From an uncultured bacterium (lineage in GTDB: Bacteria; Patescibacteriota; Minisyncoccia; Phycocordibacterales; CAWITU01), in contig CAWITU010000002.1 in assembly GCA_963839205.1 (NCBI GenBank), positions 772-64,771 of the forward strand: a stretch of DNA of 64,000 nt, read 5' to 3'. The notes beneath the pieces were generated by a model. The model saw nothing but the letters and a program-made list of their open reading frames with translations. It was not told the DNA's origin and searched no databases. The position numbers were made by a program, and so were the translations under genes. Shown one piece after another: positions 17,704-55,624 of this stretch; the stretch's first letter is position 1; each line of letters starts with the position of its first letter.

Positions 17704-18410
17704 AACTTATATTTTATACTCCCCTCTACAACGCTTTGGTCTTTTTAATCCAGCACGTTCCATCTGCTGACCTTGGGTTTGCAGTGATTGTTTTAACTAT
17801 TTTAGTTCGTTTAATTATTGCTCCACTTAATCTAAATGTTATTAAGACTCAAGTTAAACTTCGAGCGCTTGAACCGGAACTCGCTGCGCTTCGAAAGAAA
17901 TATGAAGGAGACAAAACTAAAGAAGCTGAAGCCCTCTTTGCGTTTTATCGAGAGAATCATGTAAATCCTTTTGGTGGAATTTTACCTCTACTTATTCAAA
18001 CACCAATTCTTATCTCTTTATATTTTATTTTTAGAAGTTCTGGACTTCCCCACATAGATGGAACTCTTTTGTATCCTTTTGTTCATTTACCAAGCATGGT
18101 AAATGTTCAATTTTTGAATATCATCAATATTATTCAAAAAAGCCTTGTTTTAGCGGCTTTTGTGGCTATAACCCAGATTATTCAAGTACGTTTTTCGATT
18201 CCAGCCATGCCAAAAGTTGAGGGAAAATCTTCATTTCAAAACGATTTAGCCAAAAGTATGAATCTTCAGATGAGATACACCTTACCTCTTATGACCGCCT
18301 ATATTTCCTACATAACCTCTGGAGCTGTGGCTCTTTATTTTATAACAAGCAATCTTTTCTCTATAGCCCAAGAAATTTATGTTAGAAAAACTATAAGGAA
18401 GAAGAGCTAG
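17691..18410 (+). CDS. yidC: membrane protein insertase YidC (short Gram-positive type)
   Basis: 239 aa, multi-TM, with FAVIVLTILVRLIIAPL, NPFGGILPLLIQTPILISLY, and conserved rpmH-rnpA-yidC synteny. Confidence 0.9.
   Translation: MYFLKLIFYTPLYNALVFLIQHVPSADLGFAVIVLTILVRLIIAPLNLNVIKTQVKLRALEPELAALRKKYEGDKTKEAEALFAFYRENHVNPFGGILPLLIQTPILISLYFIFRSSGLPHIDGTLLYPFVHLPSMVNVQFLNIINIIQKSLVLAAFVAITQIIQVRFSIPAMPKVEGKSSFQNDLAKSMNLQMRYTLPLMTAYISYITSGAVALYFITSNLFSIAQEIYVRKTIRKKS
17859..17895. repeat. intragenic near-perfect hairpin (9 bp + 1-nt bulge) in yidC
   Basis: TTCGA-GCGC ... GCGCTTCGAA, encoding LRALEPELAALRK. Confidence 0.6.
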
Positions 18411-19718
18411 CATTCAACTGAAGTCCCCAAAGACTCAAATCTCTTTTATTCATGAATGTAAGATAATCTTCTTTGCTATCAAGAGATAGATTGATTGCAT
18501 CAATATCTCCATTAGAAATTTGTCTAAGTGGGGCTAAGTCTTTTGTTACTCCTGTTTTGGTATTAATCATCCAAATAGAATCAGAAAAAGAAACTATCCC
18601 TTGGTACCACTGATCAGGGTATGTTGCCCGTGGTATAGAATCTGGTACAGCACAGTAAACTACGGAGTTATTTAACTGACTCCAAACACATTTTTCCGGA
18701 AGAGTTTTTAATGTAATTGGAGTGGTGTTTTCGTTTGAAATATTTAGTAAGCCAGAATTAAAAGTTTGAGCATCTGTATTGCTGTCAGAATAAAAGCCAA
18801 GTTTTAAATCTGGTGAAACTGACATGGTCAGTCCAGCGATATCCCCAAGAATTTTATTTAATGAATTTGTTTGGGTATTGAAAAGATATGAATAGCCATT
18901 TACTCCACCAGAGGCTTTCGTTGTAAATACTAATGTATTAGTCGATGGCCATAGAACCTGCCACTCATTTATGGGTGAGCTCCACACAGGACTCTGTTTG
19001 GTACCATCAACATTAGCTATAACCCCAGCACCTGAAGATTTAAAAAGGAAGAAAAACTTATTTTGTAGAGGAGATGGAACTATTTCTGATATGTCTTTTG
19101 AAAGAAGAGAGGCCGTTAGAGTATCAAAACTTGTTGTAGCGGTTGATGTTGAAGTAGGGGGAGCTATAAGGTGGGCATAATAAGTCGAAATGGTGTCTGT
19201 GTCCTCGTTTTCAATTGTCTGGATAAGTAAAGAATTTCCAGTATTATCAAAATAGGCGTTGTAAACTTTCGGGAAGGTTGTGTTTGAAATCCTATCAACT
19301 ACCCAGCTGCTAGTAGCAGTTTCGTATATATTACCAGTGGCTCTATCTATATAACGTATGAATGTCTCAAGATTTTTATGAGTGACTATTTTTGTGCTAC
19401 TAGTTGAGACTGTTGAAGTAGAAATTACGGTTCTATCAATAAATGTCTCTCCCCCAACAGGCGCAGTACTTATTTCGCGAAGGGTTGGTATGGGTGTATT
19501 TATGTTTTGAGTTGAACTTCCTGTTCCAGAATTTCCGAATTTGAGTTTGAGTTTGAGTTTTGGTTTGAACCCGAACTGCCAAGAAACGAATTTGCTGAAT
19601 TTCCATTAAAAGGAGAAGCCACTGATTGTTGTTGAAGATAATAATAAAAACCATATAACCCAAAACCAAGGATGATTATTATTGCAATTGTTATCAATGT
19701 GAGATTACTTTTGGACAT
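18391..19718 (-). pseudogene. membrane-anchored protein with beta-propeller-like C-terminal region; one frameshift next to an NS-repeat
   Basis: The N-terminal TM ORF 19500-19718 continues in another frame (GNSGTGSSTQNINTPIPTLREISTAP...) with no stop through to ORF 18391-18987. The frame change falls at about 19530-19545, beside the (TTTGAG)3 repeat. Confidence 0.7.
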
Positions 19719-19732
19719 GATTATATTTTACA

Positions 19733-20366
19733 CTAATTTGCAGAAGGAGTTCCTATTGTTATTGAACCACTTTGTAAGGGGGGGAATGCATTTGAACTCG
19801 GAGTAATATTTAAACCGGTACCAGATTGATTAGTATTCACATCTAAACCCGTTATATCAAATAAATTTGGACCAAGGGTTGTTCCCGATGGTGTTACAGT
19901 CATATGAATAATTTGATGCATTAGGGGCTAATGGGGCTGTGACAGTTATTGGTGACATCGCTGCGGGTGATGCCGTACTCAGCGCCCCGGTGAGTATCAA
20001 CCGACTGGGGATTGATAGTTGTTTTTAGTATCTTCGGATCAATCGTATACAAAATTAGATACGAACATAAAGCCAAGAGTAGTCCCCACAGAGCTGACTG
20101 AATCCTCTCCTTCCTTCTGACTTCCCCGATATGGCATCTGTAGACATATATTGAATACCTCCAATTACAATCATGATAACCGCTAGACCGCAGGCGACGC
20201 CAAGGCCCGCGTAGAAGACACTGTTCAGGTAGGAGCTAAGGTCGGTTTGAGTATTAGCCGCTTCAGTACCTATAGCTTGGAGGGGTTGATATCCCTGGGC
20301 AAAGCTGGTAGTTGGTAGTAAGAATAGGATGTTTGATATTAAAAATAAGATATATTTTTTAATCAT
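19733..20366 (-). pseudogene. T4SS pilin-like protein, paralogue 1 (frameshifted)
   Basis: Signal peptide MIKKYILFLISNILFLLPTTSFAQG plus the shared core LSSYLNSVFYAGLGVACGLAVIMIVIGGIQYMSTDAISGK. After GKSEG the paralogous sequence (KERIQSALWGLLLALCSYLILYTIDP) continues in another frame. The tail ORF is 19733-19921. Confidence 0.65.
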
Positions 20367-21086
20367 ATTTATTACTAATTGACAGTAATCGTTAAACTAC
20401 CTGATTTAGAACTGTTTCCATTACCAGGCGACCAGGCTCCTATAGCCTGTTGCTGCCGCCAGAGAAATTTCTCCATATGCAGGACCGTGGTCTCCGACGA
20501 TTGCATTTACAGACAGCCCTGTCGCGCTGTTAGTTATAGTTACTGGGGTACCTAAAGGTATTGAACTATCGCTTGGTACAACAATATAATAACTAGTATT
20601 AGCATCTAGACCACCAAGAGAGGTTGCTGATTGATATGTTGGGTCATTAAATGGGGGTGGGTTTGTTCCGTCAGTATCGATAGCTATCCCGTTAGTTGTT
20701 ATAACAGTCTGTGGATTACCATCTGGACCATCAACTGTTTCATAAGTACCACCGCTTCCAGCGTAATTAATTCCATCTACATTTGTTACGCCCGGATTAT
20801 ACGGCGGTGCCGATGTATTCAATGTACCCGAGGTGTCTGTAGATTGAAGAGTCAAAGTCGTATTCAATATCGTCGGATCAATCGTATACAAAATTAGATA
20901 CGAACACAAAGCCAAGAGTAGTCCCCACAAAGCTGACTGAATCCTTTCCTTTCCCTCCTCTTTCCCCGATATGGCATCAGTAGACATATATTGAATACCT
21001 CCAATTACAATCATGATAACCGCTAACCCGCAAGCGACGCCAAGGCCCGCGTAGAAGACACTGTTCAGGTAGGAGCTAAGGTCGGT
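20034..21086. repeat. ~213-bp direct repeat (20034-20246 and 20873-21086), the duplicated pilin core
   Basis: The two copies are near-identical by eye and differ by a few substitutions. A 1-nt length difference in the CT-rich stretch causes the frameshift in copy 1. Confidence 0.85.
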
Positions 21087-21170
21087 GGTTGAAACGGATG
21101 CAGGCTCAGTGCCTATTTGTTGGAGTACTGTATAGTTTTGGGCTAACAATATTGTAAAAATAGGAAACAT
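20421..21170 (-). CDS. T4SS pilin-like N-terminal domain fused to a secreted GH75/RlpA-like hydrolase-type C-terminal domain
   Basis: Two TM helices as in TrbC/VirB2-type pilins. The C-terminus has IAIDTDG ... YYIVVP ... GTPVTITNSATGLSVNAIVGDHGPAYGEISLAAA, resembling the GH75 chitosanase D.DG / GE.S..A pattern or DPBB lytic domains. Confidence 0.6.
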   Translation of the reverse strand: MFPIFTILLAQNYTVLQQIGTEPASVSTTDLSSYLNSVFYAGLGVACGLAVIMIVIGGIQYMSTDAISGKEEGKERIQSALWGLLLALCSYLILYTIDPTILNTTLTLQSTDTSGTLNTSAPPYNPGVTNVDGINYAGSGGTYETVDGPDGNPQTVITTNGIAIDTDGTNPPPFNDPTYQSATSLGGLDANTSYYIVVPSDSSIPLGTPVTITNSATGLSVNAIVGDHGPAYGEISLAAATGYRSLVAW

Positions 21171-21191
21171 TAGAAGAAGTTTTTGACTTGG

Positions 21192-22216
21192 TTAAATGTG
21201 AGTGAAAATTGGTTTGAAGCACTTTCTAGAAAATTGGAAACGCTCCCTAAGGCATAGAGATATGGAAGCATTTCCGTTTTGGTTATTTTGATTTCTAAAA
21301 ATCATTTCATCTTGAGAAGTTGGAACAGAGATATTGCTTCCATTAAGTTGCCATGTATAGGTAATATCTGGGTCAGTCCTTGTGAGTATTACCAAAAAAA
21401 TAAGGAAAAGCTTCGAACTTTACTTCTTGATCTCCAAGATTGTAGGAATTATTTATAGCTTTATTAAATAAAATTCCATATAAAGGATTGTCTTCATAAA
21501 CCAAAGCTTGCTCCGGCGAAGTTCCTAAAGTGATAAATTTTGAAGCTGATAGAGAACCATCGGTAGAAGTGACATCAACTCGGATAAGTATAGGATTAAT
21601 TATAATGAGTTCCTTGGACAGTTAAAACATTTTTTCCATAGCCTGATTTATCTCCCAATACCGTAGTATCTTGGCTCCAAGTATAAATTAGTTTTTTTGG
21701 ATTCACTGGATTTCCATTTGAATCAATAAAACCAGGCATCGCCACAAAAGAAACAGTACCTACTGGAGGGAAAAGTGCTTTCCCTTCATAGAAAGGTGGC
21801 ACATAAGAATTGGCTTGCCAGATAATATCTAAATCTTCTGGAGTAATTGGGATATCTTTGGTCACAGAAGTTACCATCAGGGGTCTGTATTTGAGCAGAT
21901 ACATCACTTAATTGACCTTTACCGCCAACAGTAAAGGTGTAAGTCTTATCTCCTATTCCCGTTTGAACAACTTTTCCATTAACTGACCAAGTTATAGATG
22001 AAGAATCAATATTGGATGTATAGTCTGCCAAGGCAATTGTGACAGTATCGTATGGGGCAGGTATTTCTGGGTCAGTAGTGACAGTTACTTCCACCTTGAG
22101 AAAGTTGTGGAAATTGCTATCGATAAAGCTTGGTCAGTAGAATTAGTTGATTGAGCGAAGGAAAGACTTGGAATAAATATTAAGGTAAATACTATAAGAG
22201 ACAAGCCTTTTTTCAT
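21192..22216 (-). pseudogene. secreted repeat (Ig/PKD-like) protein, multiply frameshifted
   Basis: Signal peptide MKKGLSLIVFTLIFIPSLSFAQ at 22216. The fragments 21786-22094, 21596-21907 and 21192-21395 join only by frame changes (for example VSAQIQTPDGNF|VTKDIPITPEDL). Confidence 0.6.
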
Positions 22217-22223
22217 GTCTTTA

Positions 22224-22706
22224 TTATACAACGTCTTCACCCATGGCTCTAGCAGCCTTATCCATGTTTTTCTTTAATATTTTTCCAACTAAAGATTTTT
22301 TCAGAGCCTCTTCTTCAAGCTTAGTGAATAGAACAACCAAACCTATATCTAATGTCCAAAGTGATATTATACCTCCTGTTAATACTTCAATAGCAAAACC
22401 ACCAAAAAATGAAACAGCAGTTCTTGTGCCTGATAAATTTATTCCTCGCATTTTAAAAAAAATATAAAAGAGGAATTCCGCTGACCAATCAATCGCTTCA
22501 TTAGCAATTTCACCCAAAACATATTCACCAGCCAATGCATCAATACTGTATTCTAAAACATCAAGACAAACACAAACAACCATTAAAGGTATCCAAACAC
22601 TGTTTGGTAATTTGCTGTCAGGTAATTTAGTTTGTCTTTTATTTTCTAGATCCTGTCTTTTTTGCCAGGAGGGATTTTCTTTTAATTCTGGCGATTCGTA
22701 AGCCAT
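22224..22706 (-). CDS. integral membrane protein (160 aa), island-encoded
   Basis: Intact ORF with 3-4 hydrophobic helices, tightly packed between virB4 and the secreted-protein gene. Confidence 0.6.
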   Translation of the reverse strand: MAYESPELKENPSWQKRQDLENKRQTKLPDSKLPNSVWIPLMVVCVCLDVLEYSIDALAGEYVLGEIANEAIDWSAEFLFYIFFKMRGINLSGTRTAVSFFGGFAIEVLTGGIISLWTLDIGLVVLFTKLEEEALKKSLVGKILKKNMDKAARAMGEDVV

Positions 22707-22710
22707 GAAA

Positions 22711-24555
22711 TTATTTGTTTAAATCTTTCTGCTCATTTTCTAATTTAGTTTGTTTGAAAGCTAGTATTTGGTGTGGATCAGAAGTAATAATTTGATCTTC
22801 AGTATAGGAAGCAATAATTTTGATGGCGACATGTTTTAGACCAGCAAAGAATATTCCCTCTCCTACATCTGATTCAAGAAGAAGATATTTTTCTTCATCT
22901 GTTAGGTTAAAGGTTCTTTGAACTTCATCAATTGAAGATGGGGATTGTTTAAGTAGAATTTGAATTGAGGAGTTTGTAATAATTGGAAGACCATATGGAG
23001 ATTTTAGGAAGTCCTCAACGTCTTGAGTAATTGTGGCGAGCCCCAAATAATATTTTCTTCCTCTTTTTGCAAGGCTCAAAAGAAATGAGGCAGTATCTTC
23101 TGATTTCATCATCCACCAAGCTTCATCAATAACAAGTAATCTTTTTTTCAATTCTTTTCTAATAGCATTCCAAATAAAATGCATGACGATGTACATGGCA
23201 ATTGGTTTTAATTCATCTTCCATATCACGAACTGAAAAGACTACGAATTTTTTGTTGATATCCACGTTTGTTGGCCTATTGATGAAACCAGCCCAAGTTC
23301 CTTTTGTATATTTTTCTAAACGTTGTACCAATGATTCCCCTCCTTCCATTCCAGCTAGAACTAATTCAAAGTCGGACATAAGTGGTGGTGCAACCTCAGC
23401 AAAATTTGATTCTGGAGTAATGTCTTTTAGAGCATATGTTTCGGTAATAGCTCGGTCAACAATTGAATCTTCTTCAGGAGTTAAGTCCTCCTAACATGAT
23501 TCGGAATAGACCAACCAGGTTAACAATGTTTGAGCGCAAAACATCGGCGGGCGATTCGTCTTCTCTGGCAGTAGGTAGGTCAAACGGATTAATGTGGTGT
23601 TCGGAGGTAAGCGAAATATTGAAGTATCGCCCGCCGGCTGCTTCAGCAAGATATTCGTATTCTTTTTCTGGGTCAATGACAATAACATCAGTATCAAACA
23701 TGAGAGATCGTAAAATTTCTAGTTTGGTTGCGTATGATTTACCAGATCCAGCTTTAGCAAAAGTCACAGAGTTGTAGTTTTCCAAGAGAAAATCTATCAA
23801 AAAGAATTAAACTTGAATTGTGTCGGTTAACTCCGTAAAGAATTCCTTTGTCGGATGTAAGGTCAAATGAAGTAAAAGGAAAAATACTAGAAAGTGGTGA
23901 AGAATTTAGTTTTGAATGCACATCCAAGCTCATCTGATGCAATTGGCATAACACTTCTAAAACCTTGTTCTTGTTGAAAAAGAGCTGGTTTTACATAAAC
24001 TAATTTAGCTTCAAGAATTGATTTGATTTCAGATTCAATTTTATCAAGTTCTCCTTGGCTGTCAGCATAAACAGAAATATATAATCCAACATCAAAGATT
24101 CTCTCTTGGGCTTGTTGTAAATCGTCTCGAAGTTTTTCAAGATCTTGGTAAGCAGTGTCTAATACGGGATCTCTAACTAACCCCTTCTCTTCTCTCATAT
24201 GAATTTGACTTTGAACTTCAGCCACTTTCTTTTGAAATTGTCGAAGAATTGTCGCTGTATCAATTGGATGAATGAATATAGAAATATCAAAGATTTTATC
24301 AAGATTGATTATTGGAGCAAACCAGCTTTCTGATAGAAATCTTGGGTATGAAATGATAAAAAATGTTCTGACAATTTTATCTCCAAAACTAAGTTCTCTA
24401 GGAGTAATCTTTAATGCCGATGGAGCAATAATATCTTTCAATTCCAAAATACCTGCATCATAAATATCCTGTGGAAGAATAGAGGTTATTGGTGTAGTTT
24501 TGGACTCTTGTTTTTTAAAAAAATCGCTTATTTTCATATTATTGGTTTTGATCAA
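22711..24555 (-). pseudogene. virB4: VirB4/TrbE/PrgJ-like type IV secretion ATPase, split into 4 frames
   Basis: Four fragments. 23887-24555 is the VirB4 middle domain (YPRFLSESWFAPIINL). 23754-23954 reads FPFTSFDL..ILYGVNRHNSSLILFDRF. 23474-23800 carries Walker A AKAGSGKSY. 22711-23379 plus upstream carries Walker B LLVIDEAWWMM and ATITQD. Three frame changes are needed. Confidence 0.85.
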
Positions 24556-25198
24556 GCGGGATAGGTTTATCTACATCCCCTGGATTAAATATTTTATAAT
24601 AGAGTTCAACTAGTTCTTCTGTACCAAGCTCAACAACTCTAATTCCACAACGAACTAGTCCTTGTTCAACAACGCTAATTCTTTGATCAAGTTGAGTTTT
24701 ATTATCGTCAAAATTTTGGTTTTTTTCATCTGCTTCAGATTTCTTATCTTTTTTCTTGAACAAACTAGCTCCAGGAATTTGAGAGGTGTTTTGGAGGGCT
24801 GCTGGAGAATATGGTACGACAATGAAAAAACTTTTAGTCATAATATTGACGGTTTCAGTGAAACTTTTGATGAATTCAATATATTCTTTGATTTGAATTT
24901 TCATCAAATCCCCCATTTGTTCCTTCTGTCTTTCTTCAAGAAGAGCGATGTATGGGCGAATATCTAATCTTCTTGATTCAACAAAAATTTGAATTGAAAA
25001 ATTAAGAGAGTTTAGAAAATTTTGAAATTGTAGAATAATTCCTTGCTGTTCATCCGAGCTTTTTAGAGCAAAGTTTAAAGATGAAGCCATGACTATTGCT
25101 CTAAGCGAATTATCTTTCATCACAACTACCCCATCATGTATTTCTTTGATGGGAATAAAGTCTTGGGTTGCTTTTGAAGTTTGAGCGGCTGTGGCCAT
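24539..25198 (-). CDS. VirB4 N-terminal-domain-like protein (possibly the 5' part of the same disrupted virB4)
   Basis: DFIPIKEIHDGVVVMKDNSLRAIVMASSLNFALKSSDEQQGIILQFQNFLNSL is the typical N-terminus of Gram-positive VirB4 homologues. It overlaps the next ORF by 17 nt. If joined, the ATPase would be about 830 aa. The likely start is the ATG at 25198. Confidence 0.6.
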   Translation of the reverse strand: MATAAQTSKATQDFIPIKEIHDGVVVMKDNSLRAIVMASSLNFALKSSDEQQGIILQFQNFLNSLNFSIQIFVESRRLDIRPYIALLEERQKEQMGDLMKIQIKEYIEFIKSFTETVNIMTKSFFIVVPYSPAALQNTSQIPGASLFKKKDKKSEADEKNQNFDDNKTQLDQRISVVEQGLVRCGIRVVELGTEELVELYYKIFNPGDVDKPIPLDQNQ

Positions 25199-25408
25199 AT
25201 TTAAATAATTATAACCTATTTGTGCTTCGTGGAATTGGTGCAACTTCTTTTGAGTAGGCTGTTTCGTTAATATCCAGACTCCAACTTAAATCTTTTAATT
25301 TACTTTCAGAAAGTTTTGGTACAGCGATATTAGCATTTCCAGCCAAACCACTTTGTTGGGTGTTTGCCTCGGGCTTTCTTTTCAGATTTTTTCCAAAGAT
25401 AGAGTTTG

Positions 25409-25660
25409 CTACCCAAGAAAATATTTAACCCCAGCCTCTAGAACCTCAATAAAAGGTTTACTATTAATTTTGTACATTGCGAGAGCAACACCAAAAGCTA
25501 CTGCAACAGCCATAAATGGAATGGCTAATATAAGTGGTAAGAATTTGTAGAAAATAAAAGCTAGGCCTACACCGCCACCTAAATAAATGAATTGTTTGAA
25601 GGTAAAGGGACCAAAAATCTTATCTTCAACTTCAATAAATTGAGGAACTTGGTATCTCAC
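25409..25660 (-). CDS. PrgI/VirB3-like small membrane protein
   Basis: MRYQVPQFIEVEDKIFGPFTFKQFIYLGG followed by two TM helices matches the PrgI family pattern. A plausible C-terminal continuation (SKLYLWKK...) lies in other frames down to about 25216. Confidence 0.7.
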   Translation of the reverse strand: MRYQVPQFIEVEDKIFGPFTFKQFIYLGGGVGLAFIFYKFLPLILAIPFMAVAVAFGVALAMYKINSKPFIEVLEAGVKYFLG

Positions 25661-25678
25661 CTTTTAAGTATATCACTT

Positions 25679-26464
25679 TTAATTCATTGGCTCCCTGTAG
25701 GGATCAACAGTGTATGATTTTGTAGATGGTTCTGCGTTTGGTTTAACAACAATTTCTTCTTTAGCAGAGCTAACAATCGAATTTAGTTTATTTTGAACAA
25801 TACCTATTGTTTTCACGTTATCTTTGGCTGGAGTTCCTGTCTGTATAGGAGTAGTAGCATTAATCTCTGGTGGTAGTTTAATTGGGGCATTAATTTCAGT
25901 GATAACATCTTGAGGAAGAGCCTCAACTTTCGGTTTTGTTTCAGGTTGGTTGTCCAGTACATTTATTGATGGTGTGGCTATCGGTGGGATGATTGGTTTT
26001 GTCTCTTGAGTAATTGGGTGAATAGTCTCAGTTGGGTTCTCTATCTCATTTAGTATTTGTTCTGGAGTTGGATTTGCTTCAGGAACTTTGTTTTCGGCAG
26101 GAATTGGGTTGATTTGTGTTGGTGGAACAACATTTTCATTGTCATTTTTGTATACTTCTTCAAGATATTGTCTAATTGGGACGAAGATTTTTAAATTTAT
26201 TTCCTCAGTAATTTGATTAGCTTGAATAGGGTTTATTTTTAAATTGTCCTGTAAGTTTCTGGCATAGTTATCTGGGCTTTCCAAACCAAGCATCACCAAC
26301 AAAGTTTCGTCCTCTAATAATGCCCCTTGATCAATGTGTAATTTCTTTTCCTTAACAATTTCCTGAAGAGTCGGTCGTAGGTTCGATGAAGTAATTGCAT
26401 CCTGTAGACCCTTTGGTAATGACGAGAATCTCTCTTCTATTTTGTTTTTTACGTTTTGATCCAT
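25679..26464 (-). CDS. hypothetical protein with Pro/Thr/Ile-rich C-terminal half
   Basis: Intact 261-aa ORF in the island operon. No family recognised. Confidence 0.55.
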   Translation of the reverse strand: MDQNVKNKIEERFSSLPKGLQDAITSSNLRPTLQEIVKEKKLHIDQGALLEDETLLVMLGLESPDNYARNLQDNLKINPIQANQITEEINLKIFVPIRQYLEEVYKNDNENVVPPTQINPIPAENKVPEANPTPEQILNEIENPTETIHPITQETKPIIPPIATPSINVLDNQPETKPKVEALPQDVITEINAPIKLPPEINATTPIQTGTPAKDNVKTIGIVQNKLNSIVSSAKEEIVVKPNAEPSTKSYTVDPYREPMN

Positions 26465-26467
26465 TGT

Positions 26468-28978
26468 TTAAGATTTATGTTCCCCTCCCCCACCTCCACT
26501 TCCCCCCACGTCGTCTTTTTCCTTTTTCGATTCACCCCCCTTTTTGCCCGCAAAATCTTTAAGTTCATCAAGCAACCTGTCTTCTTTAGATTTCCTAAGT
26601 TCTTTTCTTATATTTAATGCCGCTTCTTTGGAGGCTTGAGAATGGGCGGTAGAAGTTGAGCAATCTTGGTTTTTCTAATTGTTTTGAGTAGTTAAGCTGT
26701 CTAGTTTTTCCTTGGTCTCTAATTATTTTTATCTTATTATCTGCTTGATTAAGCTGTTGATCAAATTCTTTTTGTTTTGTTTCAATAGTATTTTTTGTTC
26801 GGTCATTAATTTCCTTAATCTTGTCGTCAAAAGCACTCAATCTTTGTGCTATTGGTTGTTTTGTTTTTGTTATCACATCACCCTCTATCTTCAAAGATTC
26901 TATTTTGTTTTGATACTCAGCCCGCTTGTATGGATTTGTTTCTAGCGCACCCATACTTTTATTGTGCTCAAGTTCCTCCTTGATCTCAGACAATCTTTGA
27001 TTCATCTTCTTTTCTTCCTCAAGGTCTTTTTTATATTCACTGCCCTCTGAGCCCTCATTTAATGTTTTAAGTTCTAATTTACCTTTTTCTTCAATTTCTC
27101 TCTTTCCTTTCTTTTCAAACGTATCCTTATTATCATTAATTTCTTTCTTTCTTTCCTCGGTGGTGTCAATTTCTTTCTGTTCGTTGTAAGTTTGTTTTCC
27201 AATTTCTTTACTAAATTCTAATTTGGCTTTCTCATTATCTGATAGGGCTTTTCTGTATCCACCATCTTTTGCCTTTCCAAGGTCTCCTAGTGAACCAGTT
27301 ATAGCGCCAGTTACAGAACCCGCACGCGCGTCAAAACTAGATTTCGCAACCTTGGAGGTTCCTTTATACAAGAATCTAGTAAATGCATTGTTTGCTGCAC
27401 CCTCTTTGAGAAGTGCGCTTTTACTTTCTGCCCATGTTTCCGACTGTATTTCTTCCAATCATGGCAGTTCCTCCAAATACTGTTCTTCCTGCAAGTTTGG
27501 TTCCTGCATTTACTGCTCCCGATACGGCCGCTCCACCACTCGAGGCCATTGATTTTGAAATAACAAGTGAAGTAATAAGGAATCCCATTGCGATAACTAA
27601 ATGGAAAATAAATCCTGTTGCACAGGCCCAGTCTAATGCCCCGCCAGAAATGGTGCTTAGGAACCCAACCGCTCCATTTTGACCACTACACCCACTTCCG
27701 TTATTGAAATTATTTGAGCCAATGATTTGCAGTGTTACCCACATTAAAGCAAAGAAAACTACTGGAAATATACTCTGGTCAAATAAAGTTTTCCACCACT
27801 TCTCAGCAATCATAGAATTAGTTTTGGGTAGGATCATGCTCGCAAAAGCAACCGGCGAGACAATTATCAAGAAAACAAGAACAACATACCTCACAATAAA
27901 TAGTACACAAGCTATGAGTAGAACCACCCCGACAAATAAAAGAAGTCCTGACATTAATATCGATTGAATAAATGCTTGAACATAATTAGTATTGTTAAAT
28001 TGGATTGTGGACTGATTAACAGAAGTGCCGGTGGTTGTCTTTCCGCCAAGGAAAGACGAAAGGCCAAGATTTGAAAGAAAGGCGGTTGCTATTCCTCCTG
28101 ATGGGTCAAATCCTACCAAGGTGGCGCCAACTGAACCCTGTGCAGGAGTTTCAATTGCATTCAAAAAAGTTAAAGTTAAAATATTTGTCCCATCAATAAT
28201 TACTTCAGTGAAAAATAAACTGAAGTTGATTAATAAGGCAATAACAATAACCATACTTAAGATTTTTTTAGTATTAAAACTCTCAAGTCTCAAGATTAGG
28301 GCAATAGAAATATACAGGAGAATAAAGATGAAAAAGATATTTGAAAGGTCTCTGAATGTAGACCACGTTGTATTGACAATCGGCCCTAGGTCGCTGGCAC
28401 CTAAATGTGTTGCTAGATTGGCTACTGTATAGCCGACTACAAAATTAAGTAAAAAGGCAATTATTGTGACAACCATACCAACTATCGCAAAAACAGCTAA
28501 GGCTATCGCTTGAAATAATGAACAAACTATTCCAGCTGGGTCTGGAACAACTAGCCAGACCGCGGACTGGCACCCTGCACTTTTGGTGGAGTTGCCACTT
28601 CCTGTTGTGCCAGTGGTTTGGGAGGCGGCGGCTACGCGGTACGGCGGCGGCAACGGCGGTAGATCCAAACGAAGGTGTTGTAGCGTTACTTGTACTATTT
28701 GATCCAGTTTGAGATGAATCGAGTGATGATCCATTAGGTAAAAGAGTAGTATCGTAAGGATTAGTACCTGTTTCGCTACTCCCGCCAGTACCCACATCAA
28801 GTGTCGGAGTTGAACCTAGGTCTGAAGATGCCCCAGTAGTGTCACTACCAGTAGTATTTACTGGGTTACCGTTTGCATCAAAAATTTGGGCAAAAACAGT
28901 AAAAGGTGATACAAACGAGGCTGTAATTAATATCCCCAAAACTAATTTTTTATATTCTTTCTTCATTATTAATATCAA
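26468..28978 (-). pseudogene. large polytopic membrane protein (VirB6/TrbL-like by context) with a long coiled-coil K/E-rich tail; at least 3 frameshifts
   Basis: The signal-peptide ORF 28445-28978, the multi-TM ORF 27421-28800 and the coiled-coil ORF 26595-27458 connect only by frame changes. A further shift at AAGAAAAGA extends the tail (ELRKSKEDRLLDELKDFAGKKGGESKKEKDDVGGSGGGGGEHKS*) to 26468. Confidence 0.6.
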
Positions 28979-30256
28979 CTATGATTTGCTAAGAATTTGA
29001 CCGACAGCTTTTTGAATCAGGGCTTGCACCAATACATTTACCACCTGGTCGAATTTTTGCGCTGCGACCAATCGTAGATTAGGAAGATTTAGAGTTGTCT
29101 CTGGTGTTGAATATTTAATTAGACTTCCTGGGAGTGGTGATAGCACAATTGGTATCCGTTGAGAGCTCTCAAAACCAAATTGATTACTCCCTTGTCCAGT
29201 TGACAATTAGTTTGATTAAGAGTCCCATTGATTTCGCTGGAGTTGTTGTTGTTGTAGTTCTTTTGCTTGATCAATTTGCCTCTGTGCTATCTGACTATTT
29301 ATGATTGAAGAACTAAGATAATTATTCCCCGGATTAGCAAAACCAGCTCCAAAAGCATTAAGATTAAAGGAATTTGGGTCTCCATAATAAAACCCTTGAG
29401 TAGTTTGTCCCACCACTTAAATAATTTACAATATTATTATTAATTCCTTCGCTACTATTGTTGTATTGAGCCATTATCCCTTGTAATATTTGTTGTTGAA
29501 ATTGTTTTACACCAGGATCTGATATACCATTATTAGCTTTCTGAAAGGCACTAGCAAAACCAAGTGTCTGTTGGTCGGCGATATTGGTGAAGAATTGTTG
29601 TGGGTTATTTACGAAAGCTGGGTTACCATTAAAACCACTCTTAATCCAATTAATAGTGCTATTTCCTATAGCTTGAATCAAAGCGTTACCAATACAAAAT
29701 GCCACAGCATCCCAGCTCGGTAATGAAATGGATATAGGAAGACCGAAAAGTGAAATTACTGTTCCTGTATGTGCTGCTGTAGCAACTGAACTCTGGGCAT
29801 TTAAAGTACCTTCATCTTGGCTAGGTACTGCCTTTATATTAAGGGCAGATGAAATAGCGTTAGAAAGGGTATTTATCCCTTGGTTAACTACGGACTGAAT
29901 AGCTTTTGAGAGAAATAATCCAACTGAACAACCGCTAGCTTGAAGTGCGATATCGCCAGGATTCGGTGCTGCGGTAGTGCTTTGTCCATCTGATCCAGCT
30001 TGAGTCCTTGAGATTTAGTGAAGTTGGGTTGTCGGATCAATTGTGTTTGCGTTATTTGCAGTAGTATTAAATTGGTTAAGTTGTAGACCGTTGCGTTGAG
30101 TTGACGGTACCTACGGTTGAAGTTGGATTTAGTTGAAGATCAGAATTTGGTAATTGTGAGGATAGTGTAGCGGTTTGAGCAAAAACCGCTAAAGGAGAAA
30201 TAAATAAGCAAGTGACTAAGTACGGCTGAGATTATTTTAATTTTATTTCTTTGCAT
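28979..30256 (-). pseudogene. secreted Q/N-rich hypothetical protein, multiply frameshifted
   Basis: ATG at 30256 with a signal-like N-terminus. The fragments 29364-29705, 29216-29416 and 28979-29206, plus the unlisted 5' part, join only via frame changes. Confidence 0.5.
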
Positions 30257-30260
30257 TTTA

Positions 30261-31055
30261 TTATTGGTTCCAAATAAAACCAGCTTCCTTTGCACTAAAA
30301 ATTATACCATTTTGGGCGAAATATGTTGAAAAGGCTGTCATGGTAGAAGTTGAGCTATTTTGTATGTTATTAGCATTTTGCATTGCAACTACAGCTTTTA
30401 GTGGGTCAGCTTGATAATCATTTAATTCTCTAAGATCCACCGCTAAATCATGGTAATTATTTATTGTTTGTAAATCAGTTGAAACAAAATCATTTGGAGT
30501 TGCGATTTGAATAAGTTGACTAGCTATGGCGTCATATTGGTCTGCTATAGCATTTACATCCCCACTATACTTCTTAGGATTATTAGCTATGAGAGTTAGA
30601 TTAGTGATTTCTATTTGGGCAAAAGCATTACCATAATTTCTAATAGCAGTTTTATCAGTTGGATTAAATGTCTTTATGTCGCTAATTGAATACATTTCTG
30701 GCTGGCCAATGGTGCTGATCTCCGTAGAAAATGAATCAACTAAGGCATTTTGTGTGTCTGTTGCATCAAGACCAGTTTGATCAAGATTCACATAACTGGA
30801 AAATGCTGTTTTAGCGAATCTGTCAGTTAGAGTGTCAGTCGCATTAAAATCATCTCCAGTAAAAGCGGTGTCGGGATTAAATAGGAAAAGTGTTGAACTG
30901 CTTGAGTCCACAGAAAGTGGCTGGGTTGAATTATCATACGTTAATTCTCCAGCAATTTGATTTTTTGATGGAAAATATTTTATATAAATAGAGCCGCCAA
31001 TAACCAAGATGGCAACTAGAATTAAAGAAATTATTTTTTTACTTGGAGAGTGCAT
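30261..31055 (-). CDS. membrane-anchored hypothetical protein (264 aa)
   Basis: Intact ORF with N-terminal TM helix IISLILVAILVIGGSIYI. It is the first gene of the minus-strand island operon. Confidence 0.6.
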   Translation of the reverse strand: MHSPSKKIISLILVAILVIGGSIYIKYFPSKNQIAGELTYDNSTQPLSVDSSSSTLFLFNPDTAFTGDDFNATDTLTDRFAKTAFSSYVNLDQTGLDATDTQNALVDSFSTEISTIGQPEMYSISDIKTFNPTDKTAIRNYGNAFAQIEITNLTLIANNPKKYSGDVNAIADQYDAIASQLIQIATPNDFVSTDLQTINNYHDLAVDLRELNDYQADPLKAVVAMQNANNIQNSSTSTMTAFSTYFAQNGIIFSAKEAGFIWNQ

Positions 31056-31099
31056 TTACTTGTAGAAATTATATAAAATATCGTGATACAATACAATTA

Positions 31100-32134
31100 A
31101 TGAAGACTAACATCTCTTTAGTTTTAGCGGTTTTATTCTCTCTTGTTGCAACGAGCGTTTATGCTTCGACAAATTCATTTAATTTCTCTAGAAATTTAAG
31201 TCTTGGTTCGTCAGGAAGTGACGTTCAACAGCTTCAAATTATTCTTAATCAAAATTCTGCAACTAAAATAGCACTCTCCGGCCCAGGTTCTCCAGGCCAG
31301 GAGTCAACTTATTTTGGTAATTTAACCAAACAGGCAGTTATCAAATTTCAAAATCTATATTCTTCTAAAATCCTTATCCCATCAGACCTTACGACAGGTA
31401 ATGGCTTCGTTGGAGCTTTAACTAGAAGCGTTTTAAATTCCCTTTCACAAGTTTCAACTAATGTGCCAGCTATTTCAGCGACAACAAATAGTCTTGTTCT
31501 AACAAATATAACGACTTCTCCTGTAAATAATCAAAATAATTCAACAACTACAGCTTCAACCACCCCAACAGTTTTTGTTTTTTCAGTCAGTCCTTATCAA
31601 GTGAAACCTGGAGGTACTATTCTTATAAATGGTTTTGACTTTAGCACCAGTTCGAATAAGCATATATTTGGATAATAATTTGGTTGGAACTATTTCTTCA
31701 ACCTCAACAACCGAACTCAATTTTCAAATTCCCCAAAAAATTTCGCCAGAATACATACACAATTAGAGTAACCAATAATTTGGGAGATAGTAGTAATGAT
31801 TTTCAACCTGTTAGATTTATTGTTACTAATTCTCCCTTCCAGCTCCGCGAATTTCTTCAATTTCTCCATCAAGCGATTAATGCTTCATCAACTATTACAA
31901 TTACTGGTACTGGTTTTACATCAAAATGGAAATGCTATTTTCACTCCCTTTGGAGATAATTACTTCTTTAATTTCTAACGGGACAACACTCCAATTTACT
32001 TTTGCTAGCTCTTCAATCAAACGGTTTTAAATGCTGTTCCTCAGGCTAAAGGTTCAACTTTTCAGATACCAATATATGTTTCAAATATGAATGGGACGAG
32101 TAATTTAGAAATGATAAATTTTCAAATCCAATGA
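31100..32134 (+). pseudogene. secreted peptidoglycan-binding (PG_binding_1-like) protein with IPT/TIG-like repeats, frameshifted
   Basis: Signal peptide MKTNISLVLAVLFSLVATSVYA. GSSGSDVQQLQIILN...TYFGNLTKQAVIKFQ is a PG-binding motif. The downstream repeats (ILINGFDFS, ITITGTGFTS) lie in three different frames. Confidence 0.6.
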
Positions 32135-32513
32135 AAAAAATTTTACTCTCATTTATATTGATTTATTTCTTTATTTGGCCCGATAATTGTTTCGGCCCAG
32201 ATCAATCATCAGAAGTACCTTTTGGTGGGCCACTTCTTTTTACTATTACTGTGGCTGTAGTGGAAATATATTAAATTTTATTTTTAATGATGAAACGCTT
32301 ACACCAATAACTTTAGTATTTCAGCCAGGATTATCTATTTTATATTCTTATTACAATATTACTTACTCCTGGCACACAGGAACTTGGAGATTATATTCCG
32401 GGAGCTGGTCAGTGTTGGATTCCGATTGGTAACGGAAATTGTGCTTACATTCCTTCTTTGGTGCCTATGGTAATTTGCCAGGAACTGGTACAACATTAGT
32501 GCCAACTCTCTAG
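32131..32513 (+). pseudogene. small secreted Cys-containing protein, frameshifted
   Basis: The ATG overlaps the previous stop (ATGA). Signal-like MKKILLSFILIYFFI, then VPFGGPLLFTIT / CGCSGNILNFIF... / CWIPIGNGNCAYIP in different frames. Confidence 0.4.
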
Positions 32514-33286
32514 AATTTTTCTCCAATCTTCTAAGGTTATATCTTCCGCTCTGACTTTAAGGTCAATATTATTTTTTTTAAATATTTCTTCTAGTTTTGT
32601 TTTAGGATAATCTCTTGGAAAGATTTCCAATTAGCATTTTGCGTTTGCTGGAAAAGCCAAGCTTGATTAGTTCGAAAAACTTTTTTTTGTCTATTTTGTT
32701 TTCGGTAAAAAAGTTTTTTGAGATGTTTCCAATCTGAATTATCGCCGAGTCAACTTTAGGACTCGGCGAGAAGAATCTTTTTGAAATAGTCTCAATGTAT
32801 TTTGGTTTTCCATATGCTTTTACGCTTATTGAGAGAATGCTTTCCTTATTATCTCTAGCAACAATTCTCTGAGCCACTTCTTTTTGAACAAGGACAACCA
32901 TTGTGATGGTTGATTATCTGATTCAAGAAATTTTCTAAAATTGCCCCAGTTATGTAATAAGGAATATTTGCTACCAACTTATACTTGCCAGTATTTTCTA
33001 GAAAATCCAAATTAGATTTCAAGAATATCATCGTGAACTAAGATTAATTTTTTGTCCTTAATTTCTCTTGAGAATTTTTCTTGAAGAACTGGCATCAATT
33101 CGTTGTCTTTTTCAACCGCAATAACTTGCGCCGCCTCTTTAAGTAAGAACTTCGGTTAAAGTGCCATATCCAGGCCCTATTTCCAGAACAATATCGTCAT
33201 TGACAATTGAGGCGGCGCCAGCAATTTTCTCCAATGCCCAGCTTGGATTTAAGAAAATTTTGACCTAATGATTTTTTAGCTTTCAT
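32496..33286 (-). pseudogene. rsmA: 16S rRNA (adenine1518/1519-N6)-dimethyltransferase RsmA/KsgA, at least 5 frameshifts
   Basis: MKAKKSLGQNFL, VLEIGPGYGTLTEVL, KLVANIPYYITGAILENFL, MVVLVQKEVAQRIVA and a C-terminal ...DLKVRAEDITLEDWRKILE are all present, but in six successive frames. Confidence 0.8.
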
Positions 33287-33362
33287 TTTTTTGTAATATT
33301 GAAATTAAAAATCTATAAAAATTGCTTTAGCTCCTGTTGGTCTTTCTTCTGCCTCCAGTAAA

Positions 33363-35254
33363 TTATCTGGCAATGTCAGTTAGAAATTGAGATGGAGTGT
33401 TTACTTGTTTACTGCCGTATATTGTTCTCATTTCTGTGTAGGAAAGAAATAATTTTTTCTTGGCTCGAGTTAAAGCAACATAAAAAAGTCTTCTCTCCTC
33501 CTCCGCTTCTTCTTCGGTCAAATTATCATCATCTTTTTCGTGCGGAAATAATCCCTCCTCGAGTCCGGTAATAAAAACATATTCAAATTCTAGTCCTTTT
33601 GAGGCATGCACTGTCATTAATTTTACCGCCCTCTCATTTTTAATCATACTGTCTTGATCGGTCGCGAGCGCGGCATCAGTCAAAAGCGCCGAAATTCCTT
33701 CTTCTGGTTCTAAAATATCATAACGGGTCGCCAAAGTTGCCAATTCTTTCATGTTTTCAATCTTATCTTCGTCCTCTTCTTTACCATGTTTATATAAATT
33801 TTCTGAACCTGTTTCACGAATAATAAATTTAATTGTTTCAGATGGTTTATTTTCTTTTGCAAATCAGCAATTTTTTGTAATAACTTTCGGAAAGACATAA
33901 CTCTTTCAAGAGTCGCTTCTGGCAGAGTTCCTTCAAGTCCAGAAAATATTTTTAATAGACTAACTTTTCCAATTCCTCTAGCTGGGGAATTAATAATTCT
34001 TTTTATGTCGGCATTTGATTCTGGATTAAGAGCAGCTCGAAGATATGATAGTACATCTTTAACCTCTTTTCTTTCAAAGAATCTGGTTCCCAAAAGTTGA
34101 TAAGGAATATTTTTTAAAAGAAAAGATTCTTCAATCACGCGTGATTGAAAGTTTGCACGATAAAGTACCGCAATTTCATTTGCTCTGACACCACTTTGAA
34201 TAAGTTCACGAGCCTTTCCAGAAATGAAATTGGCTTCATCAGCTTCGTCATATCCTTGAAAAAAGGTAATTTTTTCACCCTCAATATTTCTGGTAAATAG
34301 ATTTTTATCTTTTCGGTGAACATTTTTTGAGATAATTTGGTTCGCTGCAGTTAAGATTGTTTGAGTGGATCTGTAATTTTCTTCCAGAAGAATGACTTTG
34401 GCATCTGGGTAATCCTTTTCAAAATTTAGAATATTTTTAATATTTGCTCCTCGCCAGCTATAAATAGTTTGGTCAATATCTCCAACTACTGCAATATTTT
34501 TATATTTTTCTGCTAATTTTTTGGCAATCCGATATTGAACTTCGTTTGTATCTTGATATTCGTCAATGTGAATGTATTTCCAAGTTTCCTGATATCTTTC
34601 CAAAACTTCTTTATCTGATTCTAGAAGGAGCATTGTCTTGAGGAGAAGATCATCAAAGTCCAATGCTTTTTCTTCTTTAAGAATTCTTTCATAACCGTGC
34701 CAAATTTTTGCCGTAACATCAGTGATGTAATCACCTCCTTTTTCTTCTTCGTAACGGCTAGCTGTAAAACCGTTTCCTTTTTCTCTGGAAATTGTTCCGA
34801 GAATTCTATTGGCTTCAAATTGTTTTGGGTCGTACCCCGCTTCAGTCGTCGCTTCTTTGACAGCTCGTTTTGAATCGCCCCGGTCATAAATAGAGAAATG
34901 TTTTGGAAGTCCAAGTTTGGCAGCGTTGTCTTTAAGAATATGAACTCCTAAAGAGTGGAAGGTGCTCATGAACGGCCTCTCTAAGATACTGACTGGCCTG
35001 TTCAGTTCCTTATCTTCCGAAATGGCTTTCTCAACTCTCTCTTTCATTTCTTTAGCGGCTTTGTTGGTGAAGGTTATGGCCAGAATATTTGAGGGGGTTA
35101 CACCATCATGAATCAGGTTCAGGATGCGATGTGTGATAGTTTTGGTCTTGCCGGCGCCTGCGCCGGCAAGAATTAGAAGCGGCCCTCGTGTAGTGAGGGC
35201 CGCTTCCCTCTGTTTTTCATTTAATCCAATAAGATGAGCTTGTTTTTGATCCAT
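33363..35254 (-). CDS. pcrA: ATP-dependent DNA helicase PcrA/UvrD family, one frameshift near 33.85 kb
   Basis: Walker A LILAGAGAGKT, DEYQDTN, and the LEENYRS and VHASKGLEF motifs. ORF 33749-35290 goes out of frame at about 33850 and continues in frame with ORF 33363-33752. The likely start is ATG 35254 (MDQKQAHLIGLNEKQ). Confidence 0.85.
35146..35171. repeat. intragenic hairpin, 12-bp stem, 2-nt loop (pcrA Walker A)
   Basis: TCTTGCCGGCGC-ct-GCGCCGGCAAGA, encoding ILAGAGAGK. Confidence 0.8.
35176..35206. repeat. intragenic hairpin, 12-bp perfect stem, 7-nt loop (pcrA)
   Basis: GAAGCGGCCCTC-gtgtagt-GAGGGCCGCTTC, encoding EAALTTRGPL. Confidence 0.9.
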
Positions 35255-35354
35255 TGGGCCTACTATAGCACACCACATCTTTATCCCCATTGGGCTTTGA
35301 CAAGGGTCAGCATAAGTCTATGATAGAAGTATACCTACAGTAGACATAGATTTA

Positions 35355-36543
35355 ATGGCTCTACTAGGCCATTTTACTGAATTCCAGAATTATCATTATT
35401 TTAAGGCTTATTTTAGAATTTTTCTCCAAATATCGACAATTAATACCTATATTTATCGTTTTTACGGCTTTATCTACGCCTGTTTTTGCTTATGCTGGGG
35501 TCTTTTCAATTTTTTCTAATCTGTTTATTAATCCAACCGATGCTCAAGTGCAGAATGGGACATTGTCGGCAAATGTTGATTCTGAAACAGTTCCTTTGCT
35601 TCAAGCTGCAGTTAATAGTGATCCAAATCCAGATAAACAAAATGCTGTCGTCACAATTGCCGATAATGCCTTAGTTGATTCTTCCGGTCCAGAAGGAACC
35701 GCTTCGGATATAGATGGGGCTTCTAGTACTTCAGATCAGATTTCTATTTATGTTGTAAGAAGTGGAGATTCGTTAAGTTCAATTGCCTCAATGTTTGGCG
35801 TTACTTCGAATACTATTCGGTGGGCCAACGATATTCCAGCAGGAACATCTATTCAGGAAGGTCAAACCCTAGTTATTCTCCCAGTTTCTGGTGTTGAACA
35901 TACTGTTAAGAAAGGTGAAACACTCCAATCTATTGCTAAATCATATAAGGGGGATGTGAACGAAATTGCTCAGTTTAACAACATCGCTGATAATTCTAGT
36001 CTTGCTGTTGGGGACACTCTAATTATCCCTGATGGTGAGTCTACAGTTGTCAGTCAAACTCCTAGTTCTTCATCAAAAAAATCAAACACCTCAAATTCTG
36101 TAATCGGTAACTCTTCTGAAGGTGGAATTGTGACGGGTGGATCTTTGAGTGAGGTAATCTTGGATACGTTGTCTTCAAGAGAGGAAGTTGATACGACTGG
36201 ATATTTCACATGGCCAATTAAAAATGCAATTGAGACTCAAGGACTCCACGGACATAACGCTGTTGATCTCGCAGCCGCATATGGTAGCCCAATCCTAGCC
36301 GCCGCTTCTGGAAAAGTTATAGTGAGCCGTAACTCAGGTTGGAATGGAGGCTATGGTAGTTATATTGTTATCAGTCATTCTAATGGAACACAAACTTTGT
36401 ACGCTCACCTTAGTAAAAATTATGCTTCTGTGGGCCAGGAAGTAACACAAGGCCAAAAAATTGGTGCTGAAGGAGAAACAGGGCTTGCAACGGGCCCGCA
36501 TCTTCACTTCGAAGTTCGTGGTGGCAATAATCCTTTTATTTAG
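35355..36543 (+). CDS. secreted LysM-domain M23 family metallopeptidase (N-terminal frameshift or non-canonical start)
   Basis: Two LysM repeats (YVVRSGDSLSSIASMFGV, HTVKKGETLQSIAKSY) and the M23 motifs HNAVDLAA and GPHLHFEV. The signal peptide (IPIFIVFTALSTPVFAYA) is in frame with ORF 35548-36543 but lacks a start. The ATG at 35355 is one frame off, across a T5 run. Confidence 0.8.
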
Positions 36544-38090: not shown

Positions 38091-38156
38091 TCATCAAGTA
38101 TGACAAAGAGTGATGAATTTTCTATTAATTATTTATGAAATAAGTATGAGGAAAAA

Positions 38157-38513: not shown

Positions 38514-38536
38514 ATTTATATTATATCAGAAAGTTT

Positions 38537-39454: not shown

Positions 39455-39473
39455 ATTCTAATTTTACTCCTGT

Positions 39474-55610: not shown

Positions 55611-55624
55611 GTTGAAAATTATTT

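Follow-up and report, generated by a model that had tools for sequence, protein, structure and literature searches.

The window analysed here is a 64,000-nucleotide stretch of contig CAWITU010000002.1, from an uncultured Patescibacteriota bacterium. It carries a type IV secretion system (T4SS)-like cluster comprising two pilin-like genes and genes for an Ig-like protein, VirB4, PrgI and a VirB6-like protein, in the neighbourhood of rsmA and pcrA (table 1). The order of dnaA, yidC, the whole cluster, rsmA and pcrA is the same in the related locus L002. Both content and order match L002 and many further loci of the Paceibacteria/Parcubacteria T4SS-like cluster (VirB4/TraC DUF87 ATPase, PrgI, T4SS pilin-like and VirB6-like proteins), from which the window differs only by frame breaks in the deposited sequence. 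Once its frame is corrected, VirB4 is 84–91% identical to hundreds of intact proteins named VirB4 or TraC in their sources, and the matches carry PF19044, PF01935 and PF12846, placing it among the VirB4-type ATPases. The L002 orthologue of PrgI matches PF12666 (E 2e-10) and the L002 pilin-like paralogues match T4SS_pilin (PF18895) below the cut-off. The VirB6-like protein has no Pfam match in L002, while PF04610 or PF19590 occurs in a few of its distant homologues.

Table 1. Genes of the frame-broken block and its right edge, with the single-base frame changes located in each (positions are those of the window).
Feature	Position	Strand	Frame changes and remarks
Orthologue of conserved 414–500 aa protein, function not assigned	18391..19718	-	one missing base, ~19525–19590 (alignment)
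T4SS-pilin-like gene 1	19733..20366	-	one robust missing base, ~20107–20122; two possible shifts, ~20000 and ~19900
Uninterrupted gene	20421..21170		none
Ig-like secreted protein gene	21192..22216	-	7 single-base indels (protein-to-DNA alignment and L082)
Ig-like gene, indels verified base by base against L082	22132 (-1), 22117 (-1), 22088 (+G), 21873 (+T), 21606 (+A)	-	
160 aa membrane protein gene	22224..22706	-	intact; SNPs only against L082 and L083
VirB4/TraC-type ATPase gene	22711..24555	-	three extra bases: 23928, 23786, 23485
Uninterrupted gene	24539..25243		none
PrgI-family gene	25245..25660	-	two extra bases, ~25420 and ~25377, in short T and A runs
Uninterrupted gene	25679..26464		none
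VirB6-like polytopic membrane protein gene	26520..28978	-	3–5: ~28666, 27449/27372, 26639
Orthologue of L002 375 aa protein (28979 gene)	28979..30100	-	3–4: ~30006, 29415, 29215–29290, 29132
Uninterrupted gene	30261..31055		none
PG-binding-domain protein gene	31043..32130	+	4–7 within 31661–32050, the densest patch
rsmA (16S rRNA dimethyltransferase)	32520..33290	-	5–6: 33241, 33147, ~33014–33038, ~32931, ~32900, ~32604
pcrA helicase	33308..35290	-	two, ~33850 and ~33370; N-terminal 1.4 kb clean
LysM-M23 peptidase gene	35355..36543	+	body intact; start region discussed in the text

Frame breaks were located by frameshift-aware protein-to-DNA alignment, using intact orthologues from related Paceibacterota loci as queries, with at most three independent reference orthologues per gene. 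Between 19525 and 33875, at least 31 and up to approximately 41 single-base frame changes interrupt 10 genes, a density of about 2.2 per kb (at least 31 events in 14.4 kb); roughly three-quarters of the changes are an extra base. Five genes inside the block, 3.5 kb altogether, are uninterrupted. Applied to control genes totalling 9.1 kb (the PBP gene, dnaN, dnaA, yidC, the N-terminal 1.4 kb of pcrA, the LysM-M23 body and comM), the same procedure gave none, against about 19.6 events expected at the block rate (Poisson P ~3e-9). Every event is a single-base frame change, and the corrected alignments contain no in-frame stop at all. Identity to orthologues is normal after correction (VirB4 84–86%, pcrA 61–64% and rsmA 54–60%). 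The block genes are uninterrupted and co-linear in related Paceibacterota genomes, forming single open frames in 80 related loci.

A first-pass annotation had described a frameshift-dense block of 17 kb (18391–35548) in which about 12 of roughly 17 genes needed frame changes. The clustering is borne out, within tighter limits: the dense part runs from approximately 19.5 to 33.9 kb, holds 10 interrupted genes and encloses five uninterrupted ones, and the LysM-M23 N-terminus drops out of the list. By frameshift-aware alignment, the junctions it had proposed were placed correctly to about 20–40 bases. Where it had three shifts in virB4 and a break in the prgI tail, the alignments give three and two extra bases (table 1); for its three shifts in the virB6-like gene and five in rsmA, they give 3–5 and 5–6 frame changes, respectively. 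Of the genes that it had listed as uninterrupted, the PBP gene, dnaN, dnaA and comM were also free of frame changes in our alignments.

The start of the LysM-M23 gene is a separate matter. Its conserved N-terminal hydrophobic segment (from 35481) lies in an open frame that lacks an ATG, GTG or TTG start, and the ATG at 35355 sits in a different frame, with a T5 run between the two. The letters of this region are the same in the independent contig L001, which sets the case apart from the errors of the block; homologue alignments give no sign of an N-terminal shift either, and the break suggested near 35420 is not upheld as one of the block's kind. Outside the block, the isolated frame shift reported in cca was confirmed, and those in pyrC and a serine protease look plausible.

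Sibling contigs allowed part of the block to be compared with other alleles. L082 (1376 bp), which comes from an independent assembly of run ERR10755936, aligns to positions 21430–22806 with 97% identity, and the Ig-like gene is one open frame in it. Over these 1.4 kb of the 14 kb block, the window and L082 differ by 30 substitutions (2.2% SNPs) and five 1-base indels. The SNPs comprise 21 synonymous and 9 nonsynonymous changes, with 21 of the 30 at codon position 3, which points to real strain variation under purifying selection. In the Ig-like gene alone, whose window copy has seven frame breaks, 16 are synonymous and 5 nonsynonymous (P ~1e-6 to 2e-5 under neutrality). A third haplotype, mosaic for the two SNP sets, is represented by L083 (ENA; MEGAHIT contig of 527 bp). 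The 160 aa membrane protein gene has six SNPs and no frame break relative to L082; since it differs by SNPs from both L082 and L083, at least three haplotypes exist in the block. On the right flank, L001 (also from run ERR10755936) covers 34530–39471 with a single mismatch and no gaps in 4.9 kb (99.98% identity), the mismatch being a synonymous-looking change at 35159 in the pcrA part (34530–35290). Divergence in the right flank is thus 0.02%, against the 2.2% SNPs seen in the 1.4 kb of the block that L082 covers.

Exact-protein look-ups of window fragments and flanking genes found no sibling contigs for the left flank or the remaining block, and cluster look-ups with 30 proteins gave sibling members for the 160 aa gene only, leading to L082 and L083. 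No near-identical intact VirB4, VirB6-like, rsmA or pcrA product was present in the protein collection searched. The best database match was 91% for corrected full-length VirB4, 87% for a 217 aa VirB4 segment across the three shift sites (with no near-identical intact or partial copy) and 40% for the corrected VirB6-like protein, again with no near-identical copy. Scanning JGI metagenomes with the 261 aa protein returned no relatives, and the literature gave no hit for accession ERR10755936. Look-ups with P0134 and P0125 pointed elsewhere, to another species at 83% identity and to a contig with no relation to the window.

The indels themselves have a distinctive signature. The extra bases in the VirB4 gene (23928, 23786 and 23485) are each a C immediately 5' of a conserved TTG or TTA leucine codon, and across the block the base inserted directly before a conserved TTR leucine codon is C in four cases out of four (P ~1e-3 by base composition). 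C is the sole base that yields a synonymous allele (CTR/TTR) at such sites, consistent with two SNP alleles standing side by side. The insertions verified against L082 imply the allele pairs GGA/GGT, ATA/GTA and CTT/ATT, and the two verified deletions fit the pairs AGT/AGC and CAA/CAG. All eight non-homopolymer insertions adjoin a run of at least two identical bases (P ~0.01). Most of the insertions that could be placed well resemble the two alleles of a SNP retained in tandem.

Taken together, we consider it likely that the frame breaks are a consensus artefact produced by merging co-occurring Paceibacteria strains, and not gene decay. The block is a conserved chromosomal cluster of a Paceibacterota (CPR) genome, made up of T4SS-like genes, cell-wall genes, rsmA and pcrA, across which several co-occurring strains of the sampled population would differ by approximately 2–3%. 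The published 279 kb contig would represent those strains collapsed into a single consensus. At some of the polymorphic sites, a SNP would have become either one extra base, when both alleles were retained, or one missing base, when the site was lost, with each such error breaking a reading frame; near-identical strains in the flanks would have left no errors there. The origin of the indels in the consensus step is our inference. A more speculative idea is that this step worked in homopolymer-compressed (run-length) space, where a SNP would turn into an indel whenever one allele matches the adjacent base. At most well-placed sites, the window's letters can be rebuilt by taking the longer of the compressed paths from one haplotype and the run length from the other. 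Site 21606 is better explained by simple tandem retention of both alleles, since a run-length origin there would call for a non-conservative Leu/His SNP. Conversion of SNPs to indels would be patchy, as the block includes five error-free genes, one of them with six SNPs relative to L082.

There is a precedent in Trypanosoma brucei Lister 427, in which collapsed alleles with nearby variants gave rise to INDEL errors, apparent frameshifts and truncated ORFs, and phasing restored full-length genes (Cosentino et al. 2021, PMC8445201). The intact allele from the same run and the three or more haplotypes of the window stand for the alleles of that case. There, however, two homologous chromosomes were involved, whereas here we probably see a bacterial strain mixture in a metagenome, deduced from assembled sequence, with the errors in one 14 kb strain-variable island.

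The first-pass annotation had left two branches open, a low-quality consensus, with strain mixture among its causes, or a decaying region. The former gains support from the intact Ig-like allele in the same run, the three or more haplotypes and the near-identical right flank. The latter fares poorly. Recent real pseudogenisation, in which one strain would have gained single-base indels and lost the T4SS-like cluster, rsmA and pcrA, is unlikely, even though the breaks are present in the deposited sequence, isolated ones such as that in cca occur elsewhere in the window, and neutral DNA could conceivably give the 5 indels to 30 SNPs seen against L082. Neither the relaxed selection nor the mixed lesion spectrum (nonsense codons, varied indel sizes) of a decaying pseudogene is seen: the at least 31 events include no nonsense codon and no indel other than a single-base frame change, and even in the gene that has seven breaks, synonymous changes strongly predominate among the SNPs relative to the intact allele. 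The corrected proteins have lost no identity to their orthologues, rsmA and pcrA, which are near-universal, are affected as heavily as accessory genes, and a C placed four times before a TTR leucine codon is a pattern that random mutation does not predict.

Ordinary platform error with no contribution from strains, whether through thin coverage or through miscalled homopolymers in long-read sequence left unpolished, is quite improbable. It would account for the two PrgI events and a few others that lie in T or A runs, and homopolymer indel errors are known to break genes and fragment gene calls in Nanopore long-read assemblies (Sereika et al. 2022, PMC9262707; proovframe preprint 10.1101/2021.08.23.457338). 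The window shares with those assemblies the single-base consensus indels in genes that are intact in relatives, and the remedy, polishing or reference-guided frame correction, is the same. Unlike them, its events lie mostly outside homopolymers, are localized and coincide with strain polymorphism. Of the 10 best-placed insertions, eight do not lengthen a homopolymer, reducing the homopolymer errors raised in the first-pass annotation to a minor contributor at most. The AT-rich flanks contain homopolymers yet no errors, and the mismatches against L082 follow codon structure, which marks them as biological and not random error.

It is very unlikely that the breaks are real in one haplotype, through a very recent burst of single-base indels that inactivated the T4SS-like cluster, rsmA and pcrA in a sub-population of this Paceibacteria symbiont, or are tolerated by +1 decoding at sites such as CUU-R. 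Programmed +1 ribosomal frameshifting does occur at CUU, in the prfB (CUU-UGA-C) and Ty1 (CUU-AGG-C) contexts, and four window sites resemble these in that the incoming frame reads CTT followed by G or A, with the shifted TTR codon also encoding Leu. Restoration of the proteins by programmed +1 shifts or quadruplet reading at these CUU-R sites is nevertheless scarcely credible, given that the sites are missing from the 97%-identical allele and from 80 related loci, no motif unites the other events (27 or more), several of which require the opposite shift, most sites have no following stop or obviously slow codon, and the breaks are limited to one block rather than genome-wide. With no conservation, stimulatory stop or rare codon, the CTT-R sites do not belong to the prfB/Ty1 class, and programmed frameshifting was rejected. 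Two further candidates were discarded: reading UGA, UAG or UAA as sense lengthens the longest ORF of the block from 522 aa to at most 546 aa, and the housekeeping genes are open under code 11; a mobile element is not indicated, as the block has no tRNA at its edges and relatives have the same gene order and flanks.

The collapse of several strains into one consensus, which we favour, has a practical consequence. Annotation pipelines would call approximately 10 genes here pseudogenes, with rsmA, pcrA and the gene for the VirB4 ATPase among them, and such calls could feed false claims of CPR genome reduction or secretion-system loss. The signature described above, namely non-homopolymer single-base insertions that resemble paired SNP alleles and typically lie beside a two-base run, could flag collapsed-strain regions in other metagenome-assembled genomes without recourse to the reads. 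For the organism itself, strain-level diversity appears to be concentrated in the conserved T4SS-like cluster, the population being otherwise near-clonal, and this diversity might reflect recombination or selection acting on surface structures.

Protein-to-DNA alignment permitting frame changes, run for each gene against as many as three intact orthologues from independent sources, located at least 31 reproducible single-base events between about 19.5 and 33.9 kb of the window (approx. 2.2 per kb), some three-quarters of them an extra base. The same procedure yielded no frame changes in 9.1 kb of control genes (the PBP gene, dnaN, dnaA, yidC, the N-terminal 1.4 kb of pcrA, the LysM-M23 body and comM; P ~ 3e-9 at the block rate). 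The first-pass annotation had placed a frameshift-dense region at 18391–35548 between clean genes. Its interrupted genes and junction coordinates are essentially right by orthologue alignment, and the PBP gene, dnaA, dnaN and comM, which it considered clean, are among our event-free controls. The clustering is real, but the dense stretch is narrower than described and the events are more numerous.

Features of the window and single-base frame-change events located by orthologue alignment
Feature	Position in window	Events	Observation
18391 gene		1	
Pilin 1		1–3	
Ig-like gene		7	
VirB4	22711–24555	3	GAG[C]TTG; TCT[C]TTG; GGA[C]TTA
PrgI-family gene		2	
VirB6-like gene		3–5	
28979 gene		3–4	
PG-binding gene		4–7	
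rsmA		5–6	one site GTT[C]TTA
pcrA		2	
LysM-M23 gene, N-terminal segment	35355–35548		
CCA-adding enzyme gene	45184–46648	1	extra base at ~46030, ATT[C]AGA, implied ATT/ATC
Trypsin-like protease gene	49024–49542		apparent continuation in other frame within 49540–49800
Dihydroorotase-like gene	54445–55461		apparent continuation in other frame within 55380–55620
78 aa ORF (- strand)	1213–1449		
tRNA-Lys	1133–1208		
Match to contig L001	34530–39471		
Match to contig L082	21430–22806		

The window derives from a 279,057 bp contig (NCBI, ENA) of a member of the Paceibacterota (Parcubacteria, CPR). Its genetic code is standard, with long housekeeping ORFs open under table 11, and reading any one stop as sense did not rescue the block, so stop-codon reassignment was rejected as the cause of fragmentation. 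A scan of species-representative genomes with the reconstructed VirB4 as query returned 80 related loci from uncultured bacteria. The closest, L002 (JBAXAB010000002), matches 15.7–35.3 kb of the window in gene content and order, sharing dnaA, yidC, a 470 aa protein, two pilin-like proteins, the Ig-like protein, VirB4, a 214 aa TraC-N-like protein, a PrgI-family protein, a 296 aa protein, a 768 aa VirB6-like membrane protein, two more proteins, rsmA and pcrA. The first-pass annotation had suggested comparison with sibling genomes; in L002 every shared gene is one uninterrupted ORF. The shared order indicates that the block is a conserved chromosomal neighbourhood rather than a genome-specific island, and no tRNA was found at its edges in the window. 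In both genomes the T4SS-like cluster adjoins dnaN, dnaA and yidC. The VirB4-type ATPase is unusually conserved (78–91% amino acid identity) across hundreds of Paceibacteria/Parcubacteria genomes, while the VirB6-like protein encoded next to it shows just ~30–40% identity.

Exact-protein look-ups led to sibling contigs of run ERR10755936, assembled independently of the window. L001 (4942 bp), from the right flank, aligns with one mismatch and zero gaps (99.98% identity), whereas L082 (1376 bp), from within the block, is 97% identical, with 30 substitutions and five one-base indels. In L082 the Ig-like gene is open as a single frame up to the contig end. This contig is the sole intact sibling match in the block, covering 1.4 kb; searches for near-identical intact VirB4, VirB6-like, rsmA and pcrA genes found none, and a JGI metagenome scan gave no match. 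Five genes within the block are uninterrupted, one of them with six SNPs relative to L082. A MEGAHIT contig from an ENA assembly (L083, 527 bp) represents a third haplotype, mixing both SNP sets and adding private SNPs.

The rival that fares best, although disfavoured, is that one strain is truly pseudogenised across the block. Once frame was restored by alignment, the corrected genes contained no in-frame stops and all events were single-base frame changes; decay would be expected to leave nonsense codons or indels of other sizes. The presence of rsmA and pcrA among the affected genes also speaks against it. Identity to orthologues in the block (VirB4 84–86%, pcrA 61–64%, rsmA 54–60%) is as high as in flanking genes (dnaA 66%, yidC 45–56%). 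Of the 30 substitutions that separate the window from L082, 21 are synonymous and nine nonsynonymous, with 21 at third codon positions; the Ig-like gene alone has 16 synonymous against five nonsynonymous (P ~ 1e-6 to 2e-5 for a neutral expectation of 1/4 to 30% synonymous). By this pattern, which speaks against decay, the substitutions have clearly been shaped by selection, making seven real frameshifts in the Ig-like gene unlikely unless all are extremely recent.

The identity of the extra bases is also non-random, a further point against pseudogenisation. With sites placed by conservation on both sides, the extra base mostly does not extend a homopolymer. All three VirB4 events put a C immediately 5' of a TTG/TTA codon where every orthologue has Leu, and rsmA has one site of this type; at all four, C is the sole base that yields a synonymous alternative (CTR/TTR; P ~ 1e-3 given base composition). 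Three insertions relative to L082 imply allele pairs: GG[T]AAC against GGAAC (GGA/GGT), GGAA[G]TAA against GGAATAA (ATA/GTA) and CTC[A]TTA against CTCTTA (CTT/ATT), and two deletions are compatible with AGT/AGC and CAA/CAG. The window thus often holds both SNP alleles side by side, or neither. All eight non-homopolymer insertions adjoin a run of at least two identical bases (chance ~0.56 per site, P ~ 0.01). Ordinary error from homopolymers or low coverage does not account for the breaks, as the contexts are non-homopolymeric and the mismatches follow codon structure. Programmed +1 frameshifting is tempting for the four sites with a CUU-R context, but these are absent from the 97%-identical allele and all relatives, and the other events share no common motif.

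Outside the block, the isolated cca shift reported in the first-pass annotation is borne out: it separates a PolyA_pol head ORF from an HD/tRNA_NucTran2_2 ORF and has the same both-alleles appearance; those in a serine protease and pyrC stand as apparent continuations. In the LysM-M23 gene, a conserved hydrophobic N-terminal segment is open from ~35365 with no ATG, GTG or TTG start before the GTG at 35548; the ATG at 35355 is in a different frame, with a T5 run near 35420 in between. The sequence is identical in L001, an independent Logan contig, so it is not the block's consensus artefact; this leaves two readings, a real frame break or a start codon of an unusual kind. Elsewhere, a 78 aa ORF (MFYTYVLLSQKDSKLYIGWSDDLKERV...) directly upstream of tRNA-Lys follows a GC-rich, partly palindromic stretch that stands out from the AT-rich DNA around it, and by resemblance may encode a GIY-YIG nuclease-family protein.

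The frame breaks of the block are very probably no biological feature and reflect low-quality consensus from strain mixture; of the two alternatives first proposed, consensus error and decay, the haplotypes and the intact L082 gene favour the former. Fragmented genes are known to arise from indels in long-read consensus sequences (PMC9262707), and collapsed alleles with nearby variants produce misalignments, INDEL errors and apparent frameshifts that disappear after phasing (PMC8445201). The consensus may have been built in homopolymer-compressed space, where a SNP allele equal to its neighbouring base would become an indel; it would then combine the longer compressed path of one haplotype with the run length of the other. 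This model yields most observed error sequences exactly. Short-read contigs are tiny in the block (527 and 1376 bp, versus 4.9 kb in the flank), the expected effect of strain heterogeneity on de Bruijn graph assemblers. By these sequences, the population comprises several strains, 2–3% apart in the block and near-identical in the one flank tested (right). At least three haplotypes coexist in the part of the T4SS-like cluster matched by L082, and microdiversity looks to be concentrated in the secretion/pilus cluster.
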